From the IMG/VR virus record IMGVR_UViG_3300044630_004692, positions 410 to 64,409 of that record: DNA of 64,000 nt; one strand, 5' to 3'. A program made the position numbers and the translations under genes. The stretch comes from a virus. Its lineage: Duplodnaviria > Caudoviricetes. Below are positions 2,331-45,800 of this stretch, piece after piece (positions within the stretch are counted from its first letter, which is position 1; every line of letters starts with the position of its first letter). A model generated the notes under the pieces. The model ran no database searches. It saw only the letters and a list, made by a program, of their open reading frames with translations, and was not told the origin of the DNA.

Positions 2331-2454
2331 AACCTGCTCCAAATGCAAAACTGAGAAACCCCTTGACAAGGACCACTACCAAGTGGTAAAATACTTTCGT
2401 TCTGGTTTCTCCTATTATTGCAATGAATGCAATAAACCCAAACCCAAGGATTGA
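2281..2454 (+). CDS. small zinc-finger protein (CSKC...CNEC)
   Basis: Two CxxC pairs; start uncertain and overlapping the upstream gene. Confidence 0.5.
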   Translation: MSSSSQRSQTSAGGGTRTCSKCKTEKPLDKDHYQVVKYFRSGFSYYCNECNKPKPKD

Positions 2455-2484
2455 CAAGATACTCTGTTCGTGGTATCATAAATA
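2451..2484 (+). promoter_or_regulatory. sigma70-type promoter with overlapping late promoter driving the tmRNA
   Basis: TTGACA-17-TATCAT with TG extension; ATAAATA at 2478-2484. Confidence 0.75.
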
Positions 2485-2485
2485 T

Positions 2486-2676
2486 GTCGGTTGGAAACCC
2501 AACCTAACTCATTCTGGACTGGGGTTCGACTCCCCACACCTCCATTCACGGGGGTGAACTGGTATCGACGGGGTGGGGGATGCGAGAACAAATCTCAACA
2601 ACATCGTAAAATTTGAGAGGACTTCTGTTGCTGTATAGTAACGAACTCTGACTCACAATCGGGGGGAATTCCCCCC
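2486..2676 (+). ncRNA. ssrA: circularly permuted two-piece tmRNA
   Basis: 3' tRNA-like half first (T-arm TGGGG-TTCGACT-CCCCA, CACCTCCA 2537-2544), 5-nt linker, then GGGGGTG-AACTGGTATCGAC (2550-2569); G3.U70 pair; tag frame 2594-2638 LNNIVKFERTSVAV with tandem stops; outer ends approximate. Confidence 0.88.
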
Positions 2677-2680
2677 TTCA
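2661..2680 (+). terminator. hairpin ending the tmRNA precursor
   Basis: GGGGGG-AATT-CCCCCC followed by TT. Confidence 0.6.
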
Positions 2681-2704
2681 AAATATAATATAAATTGTTT
2701 AAAC

Positions 2705-3067
2705 ATGGCAATTAAATACAATCTAACAATTGATAAACTTGAAAAAATTACATCACTTAATGAATTTAATAATGTAATTAATGCAGTATCAGTTGTAATT
2801 AATGCATATTCTGAAGAATATCCAGATATTACATACGAATGTAGTGGAGATATCAAACTAGATGTTTCTAAAATTATTGAAGACCAATTTATTTCTTTTG
2901 AAGAAATTACACAGGAAGTAGTTCTTGATTGGATTCTTAAAAAGGAAGGAGTAGAAACTGTAGAAGAATTTTCTTTATTAAAATTTTCAATTGCCAACAT
3001 TCAATCTCGCATCAATAATCTAAACGAAAAAGAATTAATTGATGTAAATTGGACAATAAGTAATTGA
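2705..3067 (+). CDS. hypothetical protein resembling small fibre-associated proteins
   Basis: FISFEEITQEVVLDWI motif. Confidence 0.7.
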   Translation: MAIKYNLTIDKLEKITSLNEFNNVINAVSVVINAYSEEYPDITYECSGDIKLDVSKIIEDQFISFEEITQEVVLDWILKKEGVETVEEFSLLKFSIANIQSRINNLNEKELIDVNWTISN

Positions 3068-3072
3068 TATAT

Positions 3073-3327: not shown

Positions 3328-3476
3328 CTTAAAAACTTGCCCTGGTGGAGTCAAACATGACCCAATTTAGTCCTCGTCGGATTGGACATTAAATATGCCG
3401 ACTGGTGCGGATGAGGAGTTTTTTAACTCCGCCGAGTTTCCAATTTTCTCGTAAACAAAATTGGTGGCGAGCCTGC
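3316..3476 (+). ncRNA. structured RNA, probably manA motif
   Basis: Two GTC-TCGGA-GAC-TTAAA-TGCC-TGGT modules, GTCGG/CCGAC pairing, GGAGTT/AACTCC hairpin, CCAATTTT/AAAATTGG stem; family name from memory of cyanophage manA RNAs. Confidence 0.6.
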
Positions 3477-3484
3477 AAAGGGGG

Positions 3485-3631: not shown

Positions 3632-4492
3632 ATGATGATTCGTTCATTTATTGCTGCTGGTGTTGTTGCTGCCTCTATGGCTGCCCCTGCCATGGCACAA
3701 GTCACCAGTGTTTCACAACTGCGTGATGTTCAACCAACTGAGTGGTCATACCAGGCTATCTCTAACCTAGTATCACGTTATGGTTGTGTTGCTGGTTTCC
3801 CTGATGGTACTTTCCGTCCTGGTGAACCTGCTACTCGTGCTCAACTTGCTGCACTAACCAACGCATGTCTGGACCGTATTAGTGAATTCCAAACTGCTGC
3901 AGATGCACAGCTAGCTGCTGCTCTTCGTGCAGAATTTGCTAAAGAACTAGGTGCTACCAATGCCCGTGTAAGTGCTCTTGAACTTGCTGCTGCTCAAAAA
4001 GCTCAAGGTGTAGGTAACTATCTTGGTCTTGGCGTACTGCTAAACAAGCAGGGTGTTGATGGTGATGGTAAGTCTGTTAACAGCACTATCTCTGGTGGTA
4101 CTCTCCAGGCTCGCTATGCTGTAAAGACTTTTAGCAACCAGAATGCTGTTTCTGTTCGTCCTTACATCAACGCTGTAGCTGGTCCTAATAGCAACATCGG
4201 TGCTGCTGGCGGTGCTATGGTTTCCTATGACTGGAGCATCTCTCGTGCTGCATCTGGCGTTAGCCGTGCTAACATCTACGCAGGTGCTGGTTATCAAGTT
4301 CCTTTCGTAAATGGTGTTGAAGCAAATGCTCAACCTGCTGTTGGGACTGGTACTGCCGTTCTTGCCCTTGGTCTTGAAGGTCGTATCACCAACTCTCTGG
4401 TTGGTTTTGCTGACCTGAAGTTCCCGACTCAAAATGCTGGTGGAGGTTCTTACTCTCCTGTGTTTACCACTGGTCTGGGCTTCAAGTTCTGA
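3632..4492 (+). CDS. SLH-domain outer-membrane porin-like protein
   Basis: Signal peptide, cyanobacterial porin N-terminus QVTSVSQLRDVQPTEWSYQA...YGCVAGFPDGTFR, coiled coil, beta-strands, C-terminal Phe. Confidence 0.85.
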   Translation: MMIRSFIAAGVVAASMAAPAMAQVTSVSQLRDVQPTEWSYQAISNLVSRYGCVAGFPDGTFRPGEPATRAQLAALTNACLDRISEFQTAADAQLAAALRAEFAKELGATNARVSALELAAAQKAQGVGNYLGLGVLLNKQGVDGDGKSVNSTISGGTLQARYAVKTFSNQNAVSVRPYINAVAGPNSNIGAAGGAMVSYDWSISRAASGVSRANIYAGAGYQVPFVNGVEANAQPAVGTGTAVLALGLEGRITNSLVGFADLKFPTQNAGGGSYSPVFTTGLGFKF

Positions 4493-5011: not shown

Positions 5012-5611
5012 ATGTCTATAAAATTCGTTGATGCATCGAAATATGATAAAGGACTTCCTCATCAACTAGATGCATGGGAGTATCTTCAACAAAATACTCC
5101 ACCACATGTATTAGTTGAATTTGAGAAAAGATTTAGAAATCAAAAAGCTGATAATTTATATTCTGGAATATCACTGATTAAAGAATTTGAAAATATTGAA
5201 TTGGTTGCATACCCAGACCCTAAAACAAAAGGTAAACCTTATACAGTAGGTTGGGGAAGCACTCGTAAGAAAGATGGAACTCCTTTTAAGTTGGGAGAAA
5301 GGATTACCCAAAAAGAAGCAGATGAGCTATTTGATTATCAAATTCAAAATGAATTTCTCCCACAACTTAGAAAGATTCCATACTGGGAGGAAATGAATGT
5401 CAATCAAAGAGGGGCTTTACTTTGCTTTGCTTATAATCTTGGTGCAGATTTCTATGGTTCTCCTGACTTTAATACTATTACACGAGTCTTGAAGAATAAA
5501 GAATGGTCTAAAGTACCAGAAGCACTTAAACTCTATCGTAATCCTGGAACTGATGTAGAGGCAGGATTATTAAGAAGAAGAATTGCTGAAGGAAAACTTT
5601 GGATGAGTTAA
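5012..5611 (+). CDS. GH24 lysozyme/endolysin
   Basis: LIKEFE...AYPDP...TVGWGST, ALLCFAYNLG, GLLRRRIAE; ATAAATA upstream. Confidence 0.9.
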   Translation: MSIKFVDASKYDKGLPHQLDAWEYLQQNTPPHVLVEFEKRFRNQKADNLYSGISLIKEFENIELVAYPDPKTKGKPYTVGWGSTRKKDGTPFKLGERITQKEADELFDYQIQNEFLPQLRKIPYWEEMNVNQRGALLCFAYNLGADFYGSPDFNTITRVLKNKEWSKVPEALKLYRNPGTDVEAGLLRRRIAEGKLWMS

Positions 5612-8966: not shown

Positions 8967-8997
8967 TATATAATAAGTAACCATTGGTTACTTTTTT

Positions 8998-9084
8998 GGA
9001 GGGTCAATCCGATTGGCGACGGAACCTGTCTTGAAAACAGTTGAGGTGTTAAAGCCCTTGGGCGTTCGACTCGCCCACCCTCCG
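8998..9084 (+). tRNA. tRNA-Ser(TGA)
   Basis: Acceptor GGAGGGT/ACCCTCC+G, anticodon loop CT TGA AA, long variable arm, T-loop TTCGACT. Confidence 0.93.
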
Positions 9085-9102
9085 TTAATTGATATTATTT
9101 TT

Positions 9103-20279: not shown

Positions 20280-20316
20280 AAATACTTATAGTGTTCCCTT
20301 TATATAAAGTATTTAT
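20277..20316. promoter_or_regulatory. face-to-face late promoters for gp4 and gp48
   Basis: ATAAATA on + (20278-20284) and on - (20310-20316), each overlapping the opposite gene's ATG. Confidence 0.7.
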
Positions 20317-20752
20317 GAAGACTTTAAAGGGGAAATTTTCTCCAAAAAATATTCACAAATACAAAGGAAATTATCACAATATAGTTTACAGGTCTTCCTG
20401 GGAACTTAAGTTTATGAAATATTGTGATAGTAGAGACCACATATTAGAGTGGGGTAGCGAAGAAATTGTTGTGCCCTATAGGTCTCCTTTGGATAATAAA
20501 ATACACAGGTATTTTGTAGATTTTTATATAAAGGTTAAAGATAGTAATGGTAATATTCAAAAATACTTAATTGAAATAAAACCAAAACGTCAAACTGAAA
20601 TTCCAAAAGTTCCCCAGCGAAAAACAAAACAGTATATGTATGAAGTAACTGAATATGTAAAGAACCAAGCAAAGTGGAGTGCTGCTGAAGAGTTTTGTTT
20701 AGATAATAATTGGAAATTTATGATACTTACCGAAAAGGAATTAAAGGTATGA
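20315..20752 (+). CDS. gp4: head completion nuclease gp4
   Basis: KYKG...YRSSWE...HRYFVDF...IEIKPK...NQAKW. Confidence 0.92.
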   Translation: MKTLKGKFSPKNIHKYKGNYHNIVYRSSWELKFMKYCDSRDHILEWGSEEIVVPYRSPLDNKIHRYFVDFYIKVKDSNGNIQKYLIEIKPKRQTEIPKVPQRKTKQYMYEVTEYVKNQAKWSAAEEFCLDNNWKFMILTEKELKV

Positions 20753-33883: not shown

Positions 33884-36800
33884 ATGGCTCTAACGAGAGT
33901 AACTTCCAACGGAATTGCACCAGGCGTAGAAATAAAATTAAAAGATAATACACATGAATTAGAATCTACTGGATTAGCTCCAAGTAGCTATTCGTTTACC
34001 CCAGCATTAAGTTTTGGTACAGTATCTGGTGGAGTTTATACTCACGATTCTAACACTGGTATTTACAGTCCAGGAGCAGATGAGCTTGCATTTGGTACTG
34101 CAGGTTCTGAAAAATTAAGAATCCAAGGTGACGGTAAGATTATTCTATCAAACGGAGCAAGTCTTCCTGTAACTAATCCTAATTTTGATAGCGTAAATGC
34201 TAAAAATTTCATGCTTTACGTCAATCAATCTGACGTAAATGCATCAGATGCTCTGAATAATGACGGTGGTAACTTAAACAGACCATTCAAAACAATTGAA
34301 AGAGCACTTCTTGAAGCAGCTAAGAGAAGTTATATTTCTGGAGAAAATAATGATAGATTTGAGGCATTTACCATCATGGTTATGCCTGGAGATTATGTAA
34401 TTGATAACAGACCAGGCGTACTTACTGCCGCTGAAATTCCAACAATTACTCAGAGTGGAGATACTTTCAGTGGTTGGTCAAACTTTGAAAATGAAATTTG
34501 GAAATTTAACCCAAGAAGTGGTGGTGTTATTGTACCTAGAGGTACTTCTGTTGTTGGTTATGACCTCAGAAAAACTATCATTCGTCCTAAGTATGTTCCA
34601 AAACCAGGAGAATTTGAGACTGGATTAACAATAAATCCAGCTGGAGATGATTTAGGAGGAAGTATTATTAATGATGGTCTATACATTAATAATATCCTTC
34701 AAGATGCCGCTAACATGGTTGAGAAGGCAAAGGAATATATTCAGGACCAAACCAAACTATTCCTATATGCAGAATATTCTACTCTCTATACTTCATTAAG
34801 TTCTTCTGGTAAAATTGATAAGTGTGTAAGAGATTTAGGATATTTTGTTGATGGTCTCGTAAAAGACCTTAGAGAAGGTGGAAATATTAATTCATTTAAT
34901 GTTGGTGAATTTTATACAACTGGTGGAGACAATGATGGAGTAAATGAATTATCAGATAATCAATATCTACTAACTCAAGATGAAAAGGATGCGACCATTG
35001 CTGCATTTAATTATGCAAAAGAAATGGCTATTAAAGCAGCTCATGCATGGTCTGGTACTGCAGCATCCGCTATTTTCTCTCTCACTGATGATGCTGCTGC
35101 TAGTGTAACTTCAGCATCATTTACTTCAGACACTTCAAATTCATACGCATACACTACAATCACAAGTTCTTCAAATGGAACTAACACATTGACAAGTAGT
35201 GTTGATAAACCATCATATAGTGCAAATGTTGATTATTCAGGTTCATTAAATAGCTCTGCTTGTGCTGCAGTAGATGGTGTAATCACAACTCTTGCTGGAA
35301 TTGTAACAGGAATTATTTCAAATCCAGATACTTATACTACCCTGTACAACAGAACTCCTGGTGTAGAAGAGCAAACTGCAATCTTCAAAGTAACTGGTGG
35401 TTGTTACTTCTGGCAGATGACATTCAAGGATGCTGTCGGACAAGGACAAATTTATAAGTCTACTAGCTATACTGGAAATAACCCAACTCACAATCTTGCA
35501 GATAGCAGTGATTTTGAGAATGGAGCACTTAAGTATTCTCATCACAAAGTAGTTGCATTTGCATATGCAAACCAAAGAACTACAGATGGAGAACTAGAAA
35601 CATATTACAAAAAAATTGATAAGTGGGATATCATTTATGATGGAGATTCTGCTTCAACTCAAAGAAGATTTACAAGACCAGAAGAATATACTATTGTTGG
35701 AAATTCTTCTGTAAAAACTGAAATTGATACTGTAAGTTCTTGCTCACCATACGTATTCAACTGCTCACTTCGTTCTACCCGTGGTATGTGCGGAATGCAC
35801 GCAGATGGAAGTAAGGTACAAGCAAACAGCTTCAAGTCAATGGTTGTTGCTCAGTTTACTGGAATTTCTCTACAAAGAGATGAGAACGCTTTCTATCAGC
35901 CAAAAACTTCTGACGGTATTCCAACAAATACAACAAACCCATCAGACGCACCTATCTATACTGACCCAGACGCAGAATATAAACCAGAATATAGACATTA
36001 TCACATTAAAGCATCTAATGCTGCATTCATTCAGATTGTTTCTGTGTTCGCAGTTGGTTATGCTGACCAGTTTATTACTGAGTCTGGTGGAGACATGTCT
36101 ATCACCAACTCAAACTCCAACTTTGGTCATGTTTCACTAAGAGCTGTAGGACATCAAGAGAAGGTATTTGAACCAGCAAATCAAGGAAAAATTACTGCAG
36201 TTATTCCTCCTAGAGGAATTTCCAGAACTACTTCAGATGTAGAATTTTATGGAATTGATTACAAACTAACTTGGCAACTTAACGGTCAAACAAGTAAAAC
36301 ATATAATGAAAATATTAGACAAACATTTATATCTGGTTCACAGCTATTCAAAGTTTACTTAGATATTCCTGGACTAAACACTGAGGATGATATTCCAGAA
36401 TTTATTTTAGAAGTAGAAGATAAGAATCCTTCTGCAACTCAGACTACTGTAAGAAAGAGATTCTTAACTTACGGAAGTAATAATAATTATCTACTATTCA
36501 GAGATTATTATACTGCATCTGGTGTTTGTGATGATTCTTATGCAACAATTTCTGCTACTGTAGAAGATGAGACTGGAGCTTCTCCAACTGAATTCACTGC
36601 AAATATCAATCTTACCAAAACAGATTCTACTTTAAGTGCATCAAACATTGAAAGACAAGGTTATTATTGGGATGAAACAAATAAAAAAATCTACATTGAA
36701 ATAGATGCTTCTACATCACAATCTGATGCATTCTTAACAGGATTTATTTTCAAATATGAGACTGAAGTTCAATTTAGAACTAGTCAAGTTACAAGGTCAG

Positions 36801-39800
36801 ATAATTCAATTCAAGTTATAACTGAGCAAGTAAATGTAAATATTCTATCATATTATGATGGATTCCCAGTATCTCTATCAACTAAAAAGATTATTGATGA
36901 TAGAACATCCGTTCCTTCTGATTTAATTTGGCGAGTAGAGTATACAATTCCTAAGAATTGCCAAAAGACACCAAAGCCACCAGAAAAGAGATTTATTATC
37001 AGAGGAACTCAAGCTGGAAGTACTCTTGCTCCAGATAGTTTAACTTATTCCGAATGCAGATTCCTAGTTTATGATGTTGAAGAAGTTCAATCATGGTCAA
37101 AAAATAGTAGAGATGGTATTTACTACTTGACTGTTATTCGTGCAGATATTGACCAGTTTGCATATAATAATGAAAGGTCCACTGATGTAAATGAAACTTA
37201 TACTATCACCAGAGGGTCAAGAGTAGTATCAACTCTAAAAGGTCTATATAAAAATTCTAACTATAGAGTTGCAAGTAATATCAATTACTTATATCCATCA
37301 ACTAATGAAGATGGTCCAGCATATATTAATGGATTTGATTCCAGAGGAAATCCAATTTATGCTGGTTCTGCAATTGCAACTATCTGGAACCCACCACAGG
37401 CAGAATCTAGAGTACTAATTGAAAAGATTGATAGTGGATATAGATGTAAAGATTTATCAGTTCCAAATGTTGCATCATATACTACTGAAAGTGGAAAAAC
37501 TACTTTAGCTGGTGCTGCAGTTCCTTTTGCTGATACTCCTTCAATGTATTCTATTACTGCAGAAGCAGTACAAAGACTTGTAGATTCATTGGGATTATAT
37601 TATGCAGGGACAAGCAGTGCAGATTCATCCACAGTTAAAGTAGCTCCAGTAGTTTCTTGGTCTCAAGCTAACTTTGATGAAGTTACTAGCAATACTTATG
37701 CATATAGCTCAACTCCATTCGCAGTATTTAAAGCGAATACTCGTACTGGTACATCTTTTGACACTACAATGCCAGAAGGTGATGTTTTAGCAAATAACAC
37801 TTATGGTATTAATAAATCTCCTTCAGAAAGAAAGATTAATGTAGTAGCTAAATCATCTACTTTTAGCACACAAGATGCTCTAAGAGATGCTGGTGTAGAT
37901 TGTCCTCTATACAGACCATCAATCATGAGAGCATCTTCCCATACTTGGGAATATGTAGGTCTTGGTTCTGGTAACTATTCAACTGGATTCCCAAATCAGC
38001 AAACCAGAGTACTCAAGAGCTATGAACAGTTTATTGTTCAAGGTTATGAAAATGGTGGTGGATTTGTTGCATCTTCTGGTACAAACTCAAATGGTGACTT
38101 CTATGTTGGAAACCAAGTACAGCAAGCTGGTGGTACTACAACATTCACACTAAACGTACCTAAAGTTCGTAAATCATCAGAAACTAATTATGTAGATATT
38201 TCAGATATTGAAAACAGAATTTCTAATGCTGTTGTAAACGTTGGTGGTTCTAATAAGAATGCAAGCAGCCAGAATTTCCTCAAGAGTTTGTCAAACTTCT
38301 TTACTACTGCAAAACTTAATGTTTCTGACCGTGCAACTATTCAGACTGCATTAATTCAAGATAGATTATATCTTGCAAATACAAGAATTTCAAATGGTGA
38401 GAAATTCCCAGAAGGAAATACTGAAGGATACGGATTTACCAAGGCTGCAAGGTCTGAAAAAGTAGGATTTATTTCTACTGATACAAATGATAGATTATAT
38501 GTTTCTCCTAAGTATCTAGATGCATGGAGAATTAAGAGACAACTATTATCTGCAACTGCAGTATCTCTTGACAACAACAGAATTTATCTACAAACTCCAG
38601 GTAATACACTATTAGATGGTACTTCTACAACTACTTCAGATGCAGTAACAACATCATCAACTACACTATTTGTAAAAGAATCTGCTGGTCTTCCTGCCAC
38701 TGGTCAGGTAGATATTGTAATGAATCTTCGTTATGTAGACTCATCACATTATGTTTTAGATTCAACAAATAAAGTATTTTTAAATCCTTACATTTCATTG
38801 AATCTTAAGTATGATACTATTGATTACACTAATAATACAATTTCCTTATCTAGCACACAAAATACATTTAGCAGACAAACTTATCTTGAAGATATTTTAG
38901 GAAAGACTGGAACTAACGTAGTTTCTACTAATTATTCATTCAATAAAGTCATTAAAAATTGGTCTTGTATTATTGATGATGGTCCTACTGCAAGTGAAAC
39001 AAACCAAATTTACCTTGGTACAAAATTAGATTCAAACTTTACAGTTGGAAATGACGTAATTTCTCCAACATCTACAAGAACTATTACAATTAAAACTGAT
39101 ACAACAGATTCACTTGCTAAGTGGAATCTATTCCCAAATAGAGGTGCAATAACTCTTCGTGAGCAAACTGGTACTACAAACGCTACATTAAAATATGCTA
39201 CATTTGTATATGTTAAGAGCAGCACTCAAGGTCAATTAATTTTAATTGATAGAGTTATCGGAGGAACCAATTCCAACGTAAATAACACAACTATTTTCAG
39301 CAGTGCATATTCTGGAAATAATGTATTCTTCTCTGGATGTGATTGTTCTGTAATTTATGCTGATAAGTGGGCATCTGAAAAACCATTCATTCCAAATACA
39401 GAAACTATTTCTGAAGATGTTGACCTAGATAGTGCTACTTTACACCAGATACCAGAAAAACCATCAACTTATACTGGAGCAATTGATAAGTCATACACTG
39501 ATAAGAATGTTCCAAACCCATATAGTTCTAAAGCATTGGGTCCTAGCCTACAAAACAGACTTGCAGTTAAGGAGTTTAGACCTTTAGCTACATTAGCACA
39601 AGCTGCACGTTGGTGTTCTGCTGGAGGATTTACAACAACTGATACAGTTGAATTGCTAATGAAGCCAGGATATTATCAAATAGATACTGCTTCATTCCCA
39701 TGCCGAGTTAAGATTAATGGTACTGGAGTTTCTAGAACTGGAGGTGCAGTAGGAAAAGAAACAGCATCTGTAAGTGCTGGTAGAATTGGAGGATATTCAA

Positions 39801-42800
39801 ATACAGGGTCATATAGTACATCTGGTTTGAAGAGAGCAGATAGTGTTTATTTCTATAGACCAATTAGAATACAACCTAACTACGGAGCAAGAAGCAACCA
39901 GTTCTATGTTACTGCAGATAACAATATTTCATCTGCTGGTGGATTTGACTTAAGCAATGTTCACTTTATTTCATTGGGAGAAGCAGCAGTATGTAATGAA
40001 ATTCTCGATTCTGATTATGCTGGAAGTGATGGAATTTTATCTGCAGCAAGACAAAGAGTAAGAAAGGCATGGTTTGTTAAGAAATCAAGTGGATTCCCAT
40101 CTACTTCAAGTGGAATTACTGGAGGATTAAGTTTCTTAATGACTGCTAGTGGTGCTGCTGGAAAAGGAAAGATGGAATTCTATTGTAGCACAACTACAAC
40201 AAATTCCAGTGGAGATTTTACATTACCATCAAGTACTACATATACCACTGGTAAGTATGTTAAGTTTACTTTAAGTGCTTCTAATTTCACTGGAACTTCT
40301 GGAACTCCATCAGATTCTCAGAAGTATAAGTGGGCAAAGAATTATATTATTCCTGGTTCTACATTATACTTTATCCCTGGAAATACTACATTAGGAAATG
40401 TAACTTCATCTTCCAAGGCAGTAAAAATTGTAGAAGTAAATATCAAAGCAAAAGATGTCAATGCTCCATCTGCAACTAGTTTGGAAGAAATTGAATTCAT
40501 TTGCTCAACAACAAATGGCACAAATACAAATAATATTGAAGATTTAATTTTAGATAGCAGCACTCAAAATTGTCAGATTGTTGTTGTAAACCAAGATGGT
40601 GATGAAATTCCAACTTTAATCTTCAATTGGGCGTATGCTCAAAGAAAGGCATTCATTCCTCATGACTTTGCATTTGGTGGAAGTGCTACAAGTGCTACAT
40701 CACCAAATACAGTTTCTGATACTGGTTATGTAAGTACAAATATTACTGCTGGTGGATTAGCAGTGAAGAGATTTGATAAGCCAGAAATTTTTGGTATTAT
40801 TGCAGGATTCTCTCCTGGAAGTATAAACCTTGTTATTGATACCAATCCAACTGCAGATAGTCTTAAAGACCCAATTGATGGAAGTACATTAACATCTCCT
40901 CTTGCTCCATATCCATTTGCATCAAGTTATATTTCATTTAGAACTATACTTCTAGAATATAAAGATAATCAAGGTGAAGATGCAGCTATTGCAATTCCAT
41001 ACTTCCCAAATGGTTCATTAAGAATTGCAGGAAGAGTATATTCTAGATTCTATCTATTACAAGTAAATCCAAATGATATTGCAAGTAATGTAGAAAATAC
41101 TGGAATAGATTCAACTATTTTAAGTCAATTTACTAACTTTAATTATAGTACACTGCAAGCAAATAATAGCATTGCTATTATTGGTGGAGTTGGAACTTTA
41201 AGTGGAGCAACAACAAGTTTTGCAAACCTATCAGAATTTGTTTCTGTAGCTAAGGGAAATCTTGCATACACTGGAATAACAAATCCATATAAGAAGGCGA
41301 CAAATAGAACACAAAGTCTATTCAATGGCGCTATTCAGTCTGGTTCATATGCAGTTGGTAAATTTAATTATATTCATTATGCATATGTACATAGATGGTC
41401 AAGAAAACGTTTTATTTCAATTAATGGGTCATTCGTTGGAAATATTGGAGGAAACTTACTCAGAACTGATGCGGCTCTAGGTGGAACTTCAAATATTTGC
41501 ACACTAACTAATGTTACAATTGGTGCTCAATCTCCTTCAGATAGCATTTATAATAGAACTGGTGGAGGATGGAGAGGAGGATTAATTAGTGCCAAAGGTT
41601 CTAGAATATCTTTAAGCGGAGTAAGATTCCGTGGAAATGTAACTTTAGATTTCACTGGATTAGTTGTAAATCCTGGTGGAGATAGAGTGGGAACAAATTA
41701 TACATATGGACACTCAGTAGAAGTATTCCAAGTTGAAGATGAAGCTGTATTAAGTAAGTTAGGTGGCAGTAACCCTGCATCATTCTTATCCGTTTCCAAA
41801 AATGATGAACAGTTTAAATATCTTTATGAAAATAAAATTTTAAGTAATTTATACTTAGAGCCATTTAGAACTCCTTATGGCGAGGTAATTGATTATGATA
41901 GAAGAACATTCCCAATTTCTTGCTATCAAGCACTAAAGAGATTTACTCCTGGAACAACTGATTTAAATACTTCAGTTACTATTAATGAAAGGTATCAAAC
42001 TCCATATAGAATTATTGCAGGAACTACTCACAATAGTGCTACAGATTCTGGAACACATCTAAGAATCAATAGAAGTGCTAGTGTTACTTTGGTTGACAAA
42101 ACTATCATTGGTGCATCAACCCCAATTATTATTCCACCAAGAAGTATCGCATTTAAATACTACAATGATGATGTAATTAATAATATTTTCTATGGAGAAT
42201 TTGCAACTAAAGTTATCAGAGCAAGTAATCAATTTACTACTTATGGAAACGTAACTAAAATTAATGATTCAGCAGCTGGAAGTGGAACTGCTTCAAATAG
42301 TAATCCAAAGGTTGCTGTAATAACATTATCATCTGCAATTCCTACTGAAATTCTTGGTTATTATAGCGGAACTGCTACTCCGAATACAGGTTCACAAGAT
42401 TTTGGTGGAGTTATAGTATCAAATTATATTGAAGTTACAAATTCAGCAGATTATACTTCTGGAACATCTTGGGATGATACAAATTCAATTAAATTCTTAA
42501 CTTTATATCTAAATTCAACTCGTTACAATTATATTACAACTGCAACTTCTAGATATGAAAAAACAGTTGATAGTGCAAGAAGCTACTTAAGATTAAATTC
42601 AACTGGAACTCCAGTATATGCAATACATTCTGATATTAAAATTACTTCATCTAATGTACCTAATTTAACTAAAGGTTCTACTCCAATTGAGTTTACAAAT
42701 ACAAAATCTGGAACTACTCCACTAAAAGCTTTTGTAACTACCAACTCTGCTGGTGCAATTACATCATTCGATATTGTTTCTTATGGTAGTGGACACTTAA

Positions 42801-45800
42801 AAGATAACATTCTTACATATACTTCTGGTTCAAACAAGATTGAACTCAAGTGCTTACGTTCATTAGAAGGAAATATTGAATTATTTGATACTGGAGAATT
42901 CATGGTAGTTCCTCCAAGACATTGTTTTGTTCTTAATAATATTAATGCTAATTCTCTAGTTGGCGTTAAGCAAGAATTGCAAAAAGCCAAATCAATTATT
43001 AAACCATTCTCCTACATAAGACTAGGAACTGTTTACTATAAGATTGCAAATGATGCTACAAATGAACCATATATTTGCGTATATTCATATGTAAATGAAG
43101 TAAATCTAGCAGACGTTAGATATTCAATAGTAGTAAGATTAGAAGATAATACATATGCACCAACATATCCAGCTACACAAAGAATGGATGTGTTTGAACT
43201 TGAAACTATCTTAGATTATTGGCCAACTTCTGGTAGAGTACAATTAGGTGATGTGGAAATTGCAGATTTCACAAAAGGAACATACGCAGATGCTACTGGA
43301 TATCCATTAACAATAACAAGAAGCAATACTAAGTATTGGCCTTCTTATATTCGTGATTTTGAAGGTCTTGACCCAGAAACTGAAGACGTTGATGTATCTG
43401 TGGAGCAGTTTGTACCAACTACAATTGCATTAGCAGACCCAGTTGACTTAACTTGTGCTGGATTAAGAAAGATTGCTTCTCCTTCTACTGATAACGGAAC
43501 TGTAACAATAACAGTTCCAGAGTATATTACTCCAGATGGTAAGAAGACTACTGATAGATTAGTAATCAAAGTTCCTACTACTGCAAGTACACAGGTAGCA
43601 GATGCTAAGAAGTATAATATTGGAGATATAATCCATATTCCATACAGAAGAACTGATGCAGATTCAGTTGGTACATTGAATGTATATAAAATTTCTGGTT
43701 ATGTTAGTGGAACATCATTAACAGTTTCTTCCGTAACTGGATTAAAAGCTGGAATGACATTAACAAAAACTGCTGGAACTGGAGTTTTTGCAGCATCAAC
43801 CACAATTTCTTCAATTAATGCTACAACAAATACAATTACATTAAATACTGCAGCAACTACAGCGGGAGCAATTACATTTAATGCTACTTCTGGAACTGGA
43901 ACTTGGGAAGATATTGTATGCACTGTAGTTGCAGATACAGAAACTGATTCTAGTGTGGTTGCAAATAAAGCTGGAAGTACCAGAATTAAAGTAAAGGTGA
44001 ACATGTCTTCAAGTGGACAATCAATTTCTTGGACAAATCCAACTGCAGTTGGTGCATTTACTTGGTTCCATATTGTGCCTTCTACTTCTACTAATTCCAC
44101 AATTTATGGAAAGGTAAATCCTATTGGAGTAGTTAGATTCCAAAATACAACTTCTAGTATTTCTTATGCTGCTAGCCCAGCAACAGTTAATCTAATTTGT
44201 TCTAGTGCATTACTTGCAAATCTATCTGCTGATGAAACATTCTCATTAGTTCCAATGTTTAAGACATTGGAAACAACAAGTCCAGTTAGAGTATTTAAAT
44301 CTAGAATTGTTGATATTGAAATTCCTTCTTCAGATACAAGCACTATTAGAATTCATACTGCAGACCCAGCACCAGAACTTTGGACTGATGGATTAGGAAC
44401 ATCTGCTAACTTTAGACATTATGGTTTCTTCTTTGTAAATCATAATGGTTGGACATATCCTAGAAATGGTGGAAGTTCAGTTAGAGTAAATAATGTAGTT
44501 CCAGGTACTGGATATACTCAAGCTGCAACTGGTACTTCTGGAAGCAGTACAATTACATTGACTGCATCAAATTCTAACATCTTAGTTGGAATGAGTGTTA
44601 CTGGTACTGGAATTGGAAACCTTGCAAAAGTAACAGCAATCTCTGGAACTACCGTTACATTGAGTGTTGCTAACTCTGGTGCTGTAAGTGGAACTATAAC
44701 ATTTGGAAGTCAAAATCTTGTTAAATTACCTAACTTTAATGATAGAATTAAGATTGGTGATATTTTAAGATATTCATTTGAAGAAGTTGCACCTAGCGGA
44801 ACAATAACTGCTACTATTGCAAACTCAACTGCAAATAATGTAGGTAACATTTTAACTCTAGTAACACCACCAACTACTGGAAGTCTCAAGCCTGGAATGT
44901 TTATTTACGGTGAGGGACTTGATGAAGGAACTATTATTGAAGCACAATTAAGTAGCACAACATTTAGATTGAATAACTCATACTTTATTACAACTGCAAT
45001 TACAATTTATCCTTACAGTAGTCCATCTGCACAATATCAGTATACTGGAACTGTAGTTTCTGTTGGAACTAAAGATTCAACTACTGGATATTCAGAAATT
45101 CTACTCTCTGATAATTCAGGAACAAGACATATTTTAGACACAGCGTATTCAAATAAATCTGAATGGTCTACTATTGATGATATATTCATTAGCCATAGAA
45201 GTGACAACTTCACTGAAGATGGTCCAATTGCATCAAGATTTATGTATAGTGGCAACGGTGTTAAATTATCTACTGGTAGTTTTAGTCTATGGTATGAAAA
45301 TTATGCAAACTATTTAAGTGGATACAATGGAATTGTCAGCAGACAAGGATGGGTTGGAAACTGGGGATTATCCAGAACTGGCGAATCAATTCTTGGATTT
45401 GATACTGTTGGTTCATCAAACCTTGTTTACACCAATCAATATAATGATACTATTTGGATATCTGCACAACCAACTATTCCATTATATTGGGGAAATTCCA
45501 CCTTAATTGCTTGTGGTTCTGATATTAATACCTCAGTATCTCTTGATACTCTGTTTACTACTTCTGATAACGGTCTACCACAATATAATTATGGTATTGG
45601 AACTCATAGACAACAAGTAATTCAGCATACCAGCTTACTTACTGATGACATTTATACATCATTCAATACTTCTGCTGCAGATTCTGGAGGACATGATGCT
45701 CTTGATATTTCAAGATACCAGTTATCATCAAAACCAACTCTAGAATATGTTTTAAGAGATGCAGTAATTAGTCAAAATAATGCAACTTCTGCTGGTGGTG

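Follow-up and report, generated by a model that had tools for sequence, protein, structure and literature searches.

Two-piece tmRNA was reportedly described by Gaudin et al. (2002) from the lineage of Prochlorococcus, marine Synechococcus and Cyanobium. The Rfam family RF01851 (cyano_tmRNA) combines a permuted order with a tRNA-like domain, helix 2a, an NNIV-type tag, a helix-5-like stem with the stop codon and a terminal hairpin, and in the host copies that we compared (L178 and L179) the linker is 13–14 nt long, helix 2 extends over about 17 bp, a hairpin occupies the PK1 region, the resume codon is GCG and the tag ANNIVRFSRQ..PVAA precedes a post-tag hairpin/pseudoknot. Phages carry such RNAs as well. 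In the excerpts of Buchholz et al. 2022 (PMC9004378), Table S1 gives the tmRNAs of S-CAM3, S-CRM01 and Marine virus AG-345-P14 as ‘Permuted’, and two-piece tmRNA of the OM43 phage Melnitz and of pelagimyophages is proposed to be active during infection. The headline of the original prediction for the locus described here, a phage-encoded two-piece tmRNA, is less novel because such RNAs of phages, cyanophages S-CAM3 and S-CRM01 included, had already been published.

Reduced and engineered forms provide the other points of comparison. According to excerpts of Hudson et al. 2014 (PMC4131195), the tmRNA of mycobacteriophage DS6A consists of the tRNA-like domain only, and a molecule of this kind strongly inhibits tmRNA (excerpts of PMC4131195 and PMC11915505). 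A survey of 274 tmRNAs detected the pseudoknot PK1 in almost every one (PMC1168896). Excerpts of PMC3968760 treat PK1 as the sole pseudoknot needed for tagging and report it as required for tagging in E. coli, where it could nevertheless be replaced by a small hairpin with tagging retained (Tanner et al. 2006, in PMC3968760); two-piece tmRNAs, according to the same excerpts, function with fewer pseudoknots. What is new here is a stripped-down architecture: a previously undescribed family that lacks PK1, a part regarded as near-universal.

The window that we analysed, a 64,000-nt stretch of IMG/VR virus record IMGVR_UViG_3300044630_004692, is a fragment of a freshwater T4-like cyanomyovirus that is also seen in lake metagenomes. 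Positions 2451–2680 are confirmed as a real circularly permuted tmRNA gene. Rfam RF04321 (tmRNA_permuted) matches 2510–2580 with 60.9 bits (E 2.5e-9; gathering score 47), the match spanning model positions 26–117 of 213 and thus the tRNA-like domain only, and ARAGORN calls a permuted tmRNA at 2455–2784. The tag that ARAGORN proposes, GGNSPLQNII, is wrong because it is positioned over the terminal hairpin. In a search with RF01851, which scores the whole model against a threshold of 70 bits, the window is absent at the gathering threshold and in the E-value search this model is outranked within its clan; the closest relative of the window, L149, scores 70.8. Thus, the covariance-model and ARAGORN check suggested with the original prediction gave support, with the full cyano_tmRNA model falling below threshold. 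Each element named in that prediction (promoter, T arm, acceptor stem, linker, helix 2a, tag frame and hairpin) is present, and the locus is laid out as follows.

2451–2680, plus strand: miniature permuted tmRNA gene (Rfam, ARAGORN and fold)
2451–2479, plus strand: sigma-70-type promoter, TTGACA (2451–2456), 17-nt spacer, TATCAT (2474–2479), TG-extended −10
2478–2484, plus strand: ATAAATA motif overlapping the −10, seen in the sequence
2489–2504, plus strand: 5′ hairpin of the acceptor piece, 6 bp, loop AAAC (minimum-energy fold)
2508–2516, plus strand: helix 2a, 3′ strand, on the acceptor piece; 9/9 pairs with 2569–2577
2520–2536, plus strand: T arm, 5-bp stem, loop TTCGACT (Rfam alignment)
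2537–2544, plus strand: acceptor stem 3′ strand (2537–2543) and discriminator A2544; CCA is not encoded
2545–2549, plus strand: linker TTCAC, variable among relatives
2550–2556, plus strand: acceptor stem 5′ strand, G1–G7, with G3 at 2552 (Rfam alignment, pairing and covariation)
2557–2568, plus strand: D-loop analogue, single-stranded between helix 1 and helix 2a (Rfam alignment)
2569–2577, plus strand: helix 2a, 5′ strand, on the coding piece (pairing and covariation)
2578–2596, plus strand: short connector in place of distal helix 2 and PK1, with a weak GAGA/UCUC hairpin
2597–2641, plus strand: tag reading frame NNIVKFERTSVAV (2597–2635) and tandem stops TAG TAA (2636–2641); conserved frame
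2614–2655, plus strand: helix-5-like stem-loop in the minimum-energy fold, the stop codons lying partly in its apical 6-bp stem (2627–2632 with 2637–2642)
2661–2676, plus strand: terminal hairpin, 6 G-C pairs, loop AATT (sequence and fold)

The permuted gene order is evident from both the sequence layout and the Rfam alignment: the acceptor 3′ half lies upstream of the 5′ half, a dispensable linker separates them and helix 2a joins the two pieces. The acceptor stem pairs at 7/7 positions in the sequence, the Rfam alignment and a pairing check, with G2552.T2541 as G3.U70 and the discriminator A that had been claimed for it; together with a T arm that has a TTCGANTC-type loop, these features make up a tRNA-like domain. 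Helix 2a forms as predicted, five of its nine pairs in the window being G.U, and the single-stranded region that precedes its 5′ strand fits the 10–13-nt range of surveyed tmRNAs (PMC1168896). An unconstrained minimum-energy fold of 2486–2680 (−69.4 kcal/mol, z −2.8; 1 of 200 shuffles folded as well) contains the helices expected of a tmRNA, and a two-piece dimer fold (−70.9 kcal/mol) recovers the canonical helices. The hairpins at 2489–2504 and 2661–2676 correspond to the 5′ and terminal hairpins of the Rfam cyano_tmRNA consensus, and the stem at 2614–2655 parallels helix 5, where the stop codon of known tmRNA is located (excerpts of PMC3968760). The terminal hairpin was correctly foreseen; no T run follows it, which is why a terminator scan did not call it. 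Two further pairings were discarded. One, between the G run and the T arm, was an artefact of a fold ending at 2672, which cut the terminal hairpin, and is absent when the end is set to 2680; the other, seen by eye between the 3′ end of the coding piece and the 5′ end of the acceptor piece, is ruled out by the Rfam consensus structure.

The promoter scores 11/12 in a promoter scan and has a TG before the −10. The prediction that the gene has its own promoters stands as a consensus match only, with a promoter in the same place in L149; read by eye, S-CAM3-type copies and L149 have it equally distant from the RNA. At the position matching the ATAAATA motif, which we take to resemble a T4-type late promoter, L149 has TAGAATAAATA.

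The assignment of the gene to a phage is borne out by the accompanying psbA, cpeT, phoH, gp32, gp59, T4 RNase H, thyX and baseplate genes and by the origin of the window in a virus record. As stated in the original prediction, there is no smpB, here throughout the 64.4-kb record, itself a partial genome with a completeness of only about 34%. tmRNA genes often serve as integration sites, and prophages can contain pieces of ssrA (excerpts of PMC9004378 and PMC4131195), so that the locus might derive from a host ssrA, as a fragment left where a prophage ends or as part of a chimeric contig. We regard the chance of this as negligible: both gene halves are complete, the gene is surrounded by T4-like cyanophage genes, 2.4 kb into a 64-kb run with phage-like G+C, the same mini gene sits inside phage tRNA arrays of other contigs, and a separately assembled 876-nt contig covers it with 0 differences. 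No integrase and no duplicate of the ssrA 3′ end was seen beside the element.

A sequence pattern for the mini architecture identified 23 further IMG/VR viral loci, amounting to 14 distinct sequences of at least three types, so that the family comprises at least 24 viral contigs with the window included. This pattern was relaxed after a variant, type A, had been seen in lake contigs; the first version demanded G5 in the acceptor stem, which was too strict, and returned 0 matches in viral contigs, 0 in genome contigs and only 3 near-identical G+C-rich contigs in metagenomes. A second scan of genome contigs gave 14 matches, of which only L167 is a tmRNA; the other 13 are chance matches with no T loop or CTCCA upstream. 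Photo_RC genes were present on 5/5 mini contigs tested. The window type co-occurs with type A in lake metagenomes, and one strain retains 2471–2655 with 5 differences between flanks that have both been replaced. Two copies have neighbours worth recording. The G+C-rich copy (L134–L136) lies beside a peroxiredoxin-like gene whose product is 47% identical to an S-CREM1 phage protein, which is compatible with either a host or a phage origin, and the copy in a cyanobacterial MAG (L167/L177), in which no standard tmRNA was found above the cut-off, adjoins TnpB-like and KilA-N ORFs.

Covariation across related phages, the second check suggested earlier, was assessed in 17 distinct sequences (the window, L149, 12 of type A, L146, L134 and L167). 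Paired bases occupy 96.4% of cells and 10/21 pairs change on both sides, a value reached by 0/500 shuffles; slid controls were 42–60% paired. Both-sided changes affect 7/9 pairs of helix 2a and two pairs of the T arm, in which 100% of cells are paired. In the acceptor stem, G5-C69 becomes A5-U69 in 14/17 rows and G3.U70 is kept in all 17. Type A relatives also have a 7-bp hairpin with compensatory variants at the place of the 5′ hairpin (read by eye). By contrast with the invariant flanking stems, the linker is free to vary in sequence and is 4–9 nt long among relatives (53 nt in L134). The tag frame, which the original prediction also named and which ends in tandem stops in the window, is open and conserved in 17/17 rows: the NNIV-x-F-x-R pattern is preserved through synonymous third-position changes, with the arginine at tag position 8 written in four codons from two codon families (AGG, AGA, CGC or CGG), and the spacing from CGAC to NN is 27–30 nt throughout. 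Together, these patterns indicate that both the structure and the tag peptide of the mini tmRNA are under selection.

The window tmRNA, at about 190 nt, is roughly 80 nt shorter than its relatives. Set against host and other cyanophage copies, it has neither distal helix 2 nor a PK1 region (helices 3 and 4) nor the pseudoknot after the tag; within the 19 nt of 2578–2596 there is no counterpart of the PK1-region hairpin of RF01851. The description of the RNA as miniaturised is justified by a CGAC-to-NNIV distance of 27 nt and by a gap from the acceptor 5′ strand to the tag of 40 nt, versus 57–86 nt in 27 longer phage forms and 80–88 nt in S-CAM3-like copies. The tmRNAs of S-CAM3, S-CRM01 and AG-345-P14 resemble it in being phage-encoded, in a 5-nt or similar linker, nearby phage tRNA genes, a near-identical T arm and NNIV/NNVV tags, and the S-CAM3 type also in having its own promoter. 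Unlike the window copy, however, they span 222–277 nt by Rfam envelope, score 127.2, 120.4 and 74.3 bits, respectively, with RF01851, and still have a hairpin or PK1 region, located after helix 2 and before a resume codon for alanine. Melnitz and the pelagimyophages share a permuted tmRNA encoded by marine/aquatic T4-like phages, but theirs belongs to the alphaproteobacterial type, where a glutamine riboswitch is linked to it, and the excerpted source does not report it as lacking PK1. A blastn search of 50,697 deposited phage records returned no genome with the mini architecture, and literature searches by title and excerpt on cyanophage tmRNAs, the S-CRM01 tmRNA and tmRNAs without PK1 gave no description of the family; the supplement of PMC11915505 has no ‘Phage’ entries.

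Read by eye, full-length (L226 and L219) and intermediate (L210 and L221) phage copies encode the tag (A)NNIVSF(R/S)RTAVAV, which is that of mini type A, in different codons. The tag common to longer and mini forms indicates that the shrinkage occurred within phage lineages. The original idea that this very phage captured a host ssrA and shrank it does not hold: the window belongs to a family, and its shrinking is traceable within phage lineages.

A shortened copy could also be a deletion-damaged, non-functional remnant of a cyanophage tmRNA. Besides the missing 80 nt, the gene is dispensable, because S-CREM1 and similar related phages have no tmRNA at the corresponding locus and a lake contig in which 2454 is followed directly by 3064 lacks it as well. 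Yet decay is very improbable: another 23 viral loci share the architecture and show compensatory changes in helix 2a and in the stems of acceptor and T arm, both strands of distal helix 2 were lost together, and promoter, stop codons and terminal hairpin have all been preserved; substitutions are the opposite of equally frequent across stems, linker and frame. Our preferred reading, with a probability of about 0.7, is that the window copy is functional and provides a freshwater T4-like cyanophage with a reduced two-piece tmRNA.

How translation would resume on this RNA is a difficulty. The conserved frame begins only 18–19 nt after helix 2a, a distance that may be unsuited to placing a resume codon. 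The connector offers GCG (2582–2584) and CUC (2594–2596) as candidates, and its predicted 4-bp hairpin is weak and not conserved in L149, L134 and L167 (read by eye). An in-frame GCG upstream of the tag is present in the window only, and L149 and L146 have in-frame stops there; this family comparison makes a tag that starts at GCG 2582 as ARTNLNNIV... less likely. CUC precedes NN in 15/15 viral-contig rows (window, L149, 12 type A and L146), with GCG and GCU in that place in L134 and L167, respectively. The ‘A at −4’ rule, which E. coli work gives for resume codons, was not applied because L167 departs from it. The family comparison revealed no conserved alanine resume codon in the phage mini forms, and the codon at which translation resumes probably does not specify alanine; B. 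anthracis provides an example of a glycine resume codon (PMC1168896). Engineered E. coli tmRNAs parallel the window in tagging without the PK1 pseudoknot, which for the window is predicted only, but they have a full helix 2 and a stable hairpin, as opposed to 9 bp and the weak predicted hairpin. The need for PK1 in E. coli, the lack of a conserved alanine resume codon, the five G.U pairs of helix 2a, the RF01851 score below threshold and the missing T run after the terminal hairpin likewise count against a working gene.

The loss of PK1, which could disable tagging (excerpts of PMC3968760), is compatible with an SmpB or AlaRS decoy, an RNA acting mainly through its tRNA-like domain, its best-conserved part, that titrates host SmpB and damps host trans-translation, leaving the tag frame as a relic. 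DS6A, another strongly reduced phage tmRNA, sets a precedent for such a decoy with its inhibitory tRNA-like-domain-only molecule. We nevertheless consider it unlikely. The DS6A copy, thought in the excerpted source to be a tmRNA inhibitor, has no tag frame, whereas in the mini forms the frame is open in every row with its amino acids conserved via synonymous changes, the same peptide runs from full-length to mini forms, and a decoy has no need for conserved spacing, stop codons or a helix-5-like stem.

The C terminus of the tag bears on what a working tmRNA would achieve. It is VAV in the window and the 12 distinct type A rows (13/17 alignment rows), AA in three mini types, ALV, ATA or AAL in other phage copies and VAA in the host copies seen. 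ClpX recognizes the C-terminal LAA of the E. coli tag (excerpts of PMC3968760), and a non-alanine resume codon with VAV instead of VAA might alter or remove protease targeting, such that ribosomes are released but the tagged products persist or are rerouted. Rescue without normal proteolysis is a doubtful proposal, though less so than a decoy, given the three mini types that end in AA; it refines the working-tmRNA explanation and leaves the identity of the RNA the same.

As a working tmRNA, the mini form may carry out trans-translation with host SmpB. A single transcript would start near 2486, and host tRNA-processing enzymes would remove the 5-nt linker, RNase P cutting before G2550 and 3′ trimming ending after A2544, followed by CCA addition. 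Two RNAs are expected, the acceptor piece with about 62 nt and the coding piece with about 127–131 nt; the acceptor stem (7 bp) and helix 2a (9 bp) would hold them together. Charged with alanine by host AlaRS via G3.U70, the RNA would enter stalled ribosomes with host SmpB and EF-Tu, and translation would switch to the frame ending in NNIVKFERTSVAV and stop at TAG TAA. The likely benefit to the phage is extra ribosome-rescue capacity during host mRNA degradation and the shut-off of host transcription, in agreement with the position of the gene among phage tRNA genes. More tentatively, and with the odds somewhat against it, a freshwater cyanophage lineage may have evolved a minimal trans-translation RNA of about 190 nt that still tags with a 9-bp helix 2, no pseudoknot and no alanine resume codon, its VAV signal possibly separating rescue from the host degradation route. 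If true, PK1 and a long helix 2 would be dispensable in nature, and phages would tune the outcome of trans-translation to their own benefit. A covarying, tag-bearing family with helix 2a only and no PK1 is in any case a natural minimal scaffold for testing what the ribosome, SmpB and the resume codon require.

In IMG/VR, two parallel patterns for short-linker NNIV-type cyanophage tmRNAs matched 23 mini and 27 longer forms, so that about half of those matched are mini, placed in tRNA arrays or behind their own promoter. Given this share and placement, ribosome rescue may be a regular part of the freshwater cyanophage translation toolkit. The expectation that annotation pipelines would miss the tmRNA fails for the window copy, which both ARAGORN and Rfam flag, and holds for its commoner type A relatives, which are mostly missed: ARAGORN found 2/8 mini loci tested, both with a wrong tag, and Rfam at curated thresholds found 0/4 of type A, the commonest mini type. 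In the deposited genomes, a ‘hypothetical protein’ CDS is annotated over the tmRNA of S-CAM3, and S-CRM01 has no annotation at its tmRNA. Surveys of phage translation genes therefore undercount tmRNAs.

The window locus is a true permuted tmRNA gene. All elements named in the original prediction, which had proposed a miniaturised, phage-encoded two-piece tmRNA, were found in the window sequence where it had placed them. The promoter (TTGACA, 17 nt, TATCAT) scored 11/12 in a promoter scan and has a TG upstream of the −10 element; a second strong promoter-like site at 2363–2392 (TTGACA, 18 nt, TAAAAT; likewise 11/12 and TG-extended) lies within the upstream 68-aa ORF. The acceptor stem is paired at 7/7 positions, including G3.U70, and helix 2a at 9/9, five of these being G.U. 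The unconstrained minimum-energy structure of 2486–2680 showed the canonical arrangement, both as a single precursor and as two pieces, with predicted helices forming the 5′ hairpin, helix 2a, the T arm, the acceptor stem, a stem-loop across the stop codons and a terminal hairpin. The fold energy was −69.4 kcal/mol compared with a shuffle mean of −58.1 (z −2.8), a value equalled by 1 of 200 shuffles. Covariance-model and ARAGORN searches, the check suggested with the original prediction, bore it out. RF04321 (Rfam tmRNA_permuted) matched at 2510–2580 with 60.9 bits (gathering score 47), the match being limited to model positions 26–117 of 213, which correspond to the tRNA-like domain, and ARAGORN called a permuted tmRNA at 2455–2784. 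However, the window fell below the threshold of RF01851 (Rfam cyano_tmRNA, the full-length cyanobacterial form), and the tag proposed by ARAGORN is wrong, falling on the terminal hairpin. Judged from its sequence, the gene is very probably functional.

Phage-encoded tmRNAs are on record (PMC4131195), and a 2025 tmRNA database holds 79 unique bacteriophage sequences (PMC11915505). In Buchholz et al. 2022 (PMC9004378), two-piece forms accounted for 53 of 133 unique phage tmRNAs, 50 of them from marine or aquatic phages; the paper names Prochlorococcus phage AG-345-P14 as a carrier, and the 'Permuted' entries of its Table S1 include Synechococcus phages S-CAM3, S-CRM01, S-SSM7 and S-CBWM1. Our own searches confirmed that S-CAM3 (127.2 bits on RF01851) and AG-345-P14 (120.4 bits) have full-length permuted tmRNAs and that S-CRM01 (74.3 bits) has a shorter one. 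In the deposited S-CAM3 record (KU686198), the 'hypothetical protein' CDS T040910_205 overlies the tmRNA (L002 1459–1599); in that of S-CRM01 (NC_015569), the tmRNA (L207 656–877) is unannotated. Given these published and confirmed cyanophage examples, the headline of the original prediction describes something real but already known as a kind. The window gene is a phage-encoded two-piece tmRNA of that known kind, but a new, strongly reduced structural variant, which is common to a family of freshwater cyanophages.

The extent of the reduction can be read against the RF01851 consensus structure, as it appears when aligned to S-CAM3 and to two phage copies from IMG/VR. It comprises a 5′ hairpin, helix 2 (about 17 bp), a PK1-region hairpin, the tag and a tag-end stem, then a post-tag hairpin with a loop able to pair downstream and a terminal hairpin. 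Of these elements, the window retains the 5′ and terminal hairpins, 9 bp of helix 2, and the tag with a tag-end stem; distal helix 2 is missing on both strands, as are the PK1 region and the post-tag element. The acceptor 5′ strand is separated from the NNIV codons by 40 nt, compared with 80–88 nt in S-CAM3-like copies. Throughout the mini family, helix 2a alone is followed by 18–19 nt of unpaired or weakly paired sequence and then the tag frame. A 4-bp GAGA/UCUC hairpin was predicted in the window connector in the minimum-energy fold; by eye, a hairpin of this type can be drawn in type A (the most numerous mini type) and in L146 (of a third mini type), but not in L149 (the nearest mini relative of the window), L134 (a G+C-rich metagenome contig) or L167 (a cyanobacterial MAG copy). 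PK1 is needed for tagging in E. coli, yet can be replaced by a small stable hairpin, and two-piece tmRNAs function with far fewer pseudoknots (PMC3968760). Nearly all of 274 sequences surveyed have PK1, and the two exceptions retain helix 3 (PMC1168896); the mini family, with helix 2a only, is reduced further than these.

We searched for relatives with a pattern requiring the tRNA-like domain, a linker of 1–12 nt and NNIV codons 25–55 nt past the acceptor 5′ strand, omitting the window's own record. This matched 23 IMG/VR loci (14 distinct sequences), which fall into three types: type A, with 20 loci, sits in dense tRNA arrays (11 tRNA genes in 1.3 kb at L138); L149 has a promoter at the position matching that of the window; and L146 and L157 form the third. 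Photo_RC genes were present on 5/5 mini-form contigs tested, so these carriers are cyanophages. A parallel pattern with a gap of 56–86 nt matched 27 IMG/VR loci; under these patterns, mini forms are therefore about as common as longer ones. The short architecture was also present in three near-identical G+C-rich metagenome contigs and on one contig of a cyanobacterial MAG. The MAG copy (L177, G001:C345) encodes its CCA and has an unusual T loop; a TnpB-like ORF (OrfB_IS605 and Cas12f-like TNB domains) flanks it on one side and a KilA-N ORF on the other, and no standard tmRNA over cut-off was found in that 4.2-Mb MAG. Among 151 sampled cyanobacterial genomes, a permuted tmRNA exceeded the RF04321 cut-off in three, both strong hits being full-length, and blastn did not find the mini architecture in deposited phage genomes. 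More broadly, a tRNA-like domain in permuted order, with a 1–31-nt linker, is present in at least 119 viral-contig stretches in IMG/VR (L015–L133); the majority fall outside the cyanobacterial NNIV type, and host ssrA at the ends of prophages may account for some of them.

The original prediction had held that pipelines expecting one-piece tmRNA would miss this gene. The window copy is flagged by both ARAGORN and RF04321, but most mini relatives are missed. ARAGORN detected two of eight mini loci tested (the window and L146), with wrong tags in both, and gave no tmRNA for L134, L136, L137, L138, L149 or L167. At Rfam gathering thresholds, none of four type A loci (L137, L138, L140 and L150) was recovered; L149 scored 70.8 on RF01851 (cut-off 70) and L146 48.6 on RF04321 (cut-off 47).

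Covariation across relatives, also proposed as a check, upheld the structure. In an alignment of 17 distinct mini sequences, scored for the three helices of the tRNA-like domain and helix 2a, 96.4% of helix cells were paired and 10/21 pairs had changed on both sides, including 7/9 pairs of helix 2a alone. None of 500 column shuffles attained these values, a control that overstates significance because the 17 rows are related. Kinship among the rows does not affect the number of independent pair types or the slid controls, in which moving the partner by 1–3 columns lowered pairing to 42–60%. In the acceptor stem, G5-C69 changes to A5-U69, and G3.U70 is invariant. The linker differs in nearly every type (4–9 nt; the G+C-rich copy has 53 nt), which would fit a segment that is cut out and discarded. 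The distance from the CGAC within the D-loop analogue to the NN codons is 27–30 nt in 17/17 sequences, and the tag frame is open in all 17, reading NNIV-x-F-x-R. Third codon positions vary (AAC/AAT, ATC/ATT, GTA/GTT/GTG, TTT/TTC), and Arg is encoded by AGG, AGA, CGC or CGG.

Homology to S-CAM3-type copies would start the tag at GCG 2582 (ARTNLNNIV...). The family comparison speaks against this start: GCG is in frame only in the window, L149 differs in length by 1 nt and has an in-frame TAA four codons upstream of NN, and in L146 a TAA lies in frame six codons upstream. CUC immediately precedes NN in 15/15 viral-contig rows (window, L149, 12 type A and L146); in the G+C-rich copy this codon is GCG, and in the MAG copy an extra GCU comes after CUC. 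The most likely resume codon is CUC 2594 or AAC 2597, which would yield (A)LNNIVKFERTSVAV or (A)NNIVKFERTSVAV. A glycine resume codon in B. anthracis is a precedent for a non-alanine codon (PMC1168896). The tag ends in VAV in the window and type A and in AA in the remaining mini types; ALV, ATA and AAL endings occur in other phage copies. A C-terminal LAA is read by ClpX (PMC3968760). All steps of the proposed mechanism would be those of the established tmRNA pathway, from which we infer them.

Of the longer phage forms, L226 and L219 resemble host copies in their long helix 2 and PK1 region and carry the tag ANNIVSFRRTAVAV (by eye), L210 and L221 have an intermediate connector and the tag ANNIVSFSRTAVAV (by eye), and mini type A has NNIVSFRRTAVAV, its synonymous codons differing from those of the longer forms. 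S-CRM01, also with an intermediate connector, shares its acceptor stem and T arm with type A (89% identity in the tRNA-like domain). A single tag lineage is thus represented by full, intermediate and mini versions, every one on phage contigs, which places the reduction within phage evolution. Of the proposal that a host ssrA was captured and then reduced, the reduction therefore stands, located in phages. The tag lineage also argues for function having been retained throughout. A further cyanophage type of intermediate length (gap 58 nt; L208, L211, L217, L222, L223, L225, L228, L231 and L233) has tags ending in ALV, not VAA (by eye).

The 64-kb window represents part of a T4-like cyanomyovirus genome and comes from an IMG/VR virus record of 64,409 bases with an estimated completeness of 34%. 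One strand encodes psbA (Photo_RC), CpeT, PhoH, gp32, gp59, T4 RNase H, ThyX, and baseplate and tail proteins (Pfam), and ARAGORN found five tRNA genes in the region. In agreement with the original prediction, no SmpB gene was found in this partial record. The closest deposited relatives at the tmRNA locus are the estuarine or freshwater Synechococcus phages S-CREM1, DSL-LC02, DSL-LC03 and S-SRM01. Other features of the window are:

1–36, 41–112, 449–522: truncated abiF RNA match (37.6 bits, cut-off 37) adjoining tRNA-Gly and tRNA-Asn; the S-CREM1 annotation has a cluster of like elements (manA RNA, tRNA-Asn, abiF, tRNA-Gly)
3368–3478: wcaG RNA motif (Rfam, 52 bits, gathering score 42), about 700 nt 3′ of the tmRNA
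3632–4489: phage ORF with an SLH (S-layer homology) domain (E 8.7e-11), followed by phage lysozyme at 5012–5608
8997–9085: tRNA-Ser (tga) by ARAGORN, tRNA-Sec as Rfam clan best (47.1 bits, cut-off 47); probably a Ser tRNA with a long variable arm
20315–20749: ORF with a TnsA-like endonuclease N-terminal domain (E 1.1e-23), amid tail and baseplate genes
33884–46780: one 4,299-aa ORF in the tail/baseplate region, with no Pfam family at E 1e-5; its large neighbour ORFs likewise lack Pfam matches

Lake-water metagenome runs contain DNA near-identical to the window, with zero-difference pieces from runs X1, X3 and X4. Besides the window type, the lake runs contain a type A copy (one contig each in X1, X4 and X6), with helix 2a changes visible on both strands. 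Many lake contigs diverge at 2454, and the region 2454–3071, beyond the upstream ORF's stop codon, forms a variable island. One 1,879-nt contig retains 2471–2655 with 5 differences, has 696 different letters between 2454 and 2471, and skips 2656–3070; another joins 2454 to 3064 and lacks the tmRNA. S-CREM1 has the upstream ORF, and no tmRNA was found there. The tmRNA gene is thus an optional cassette within this variable island, conserved wherever it occurs.
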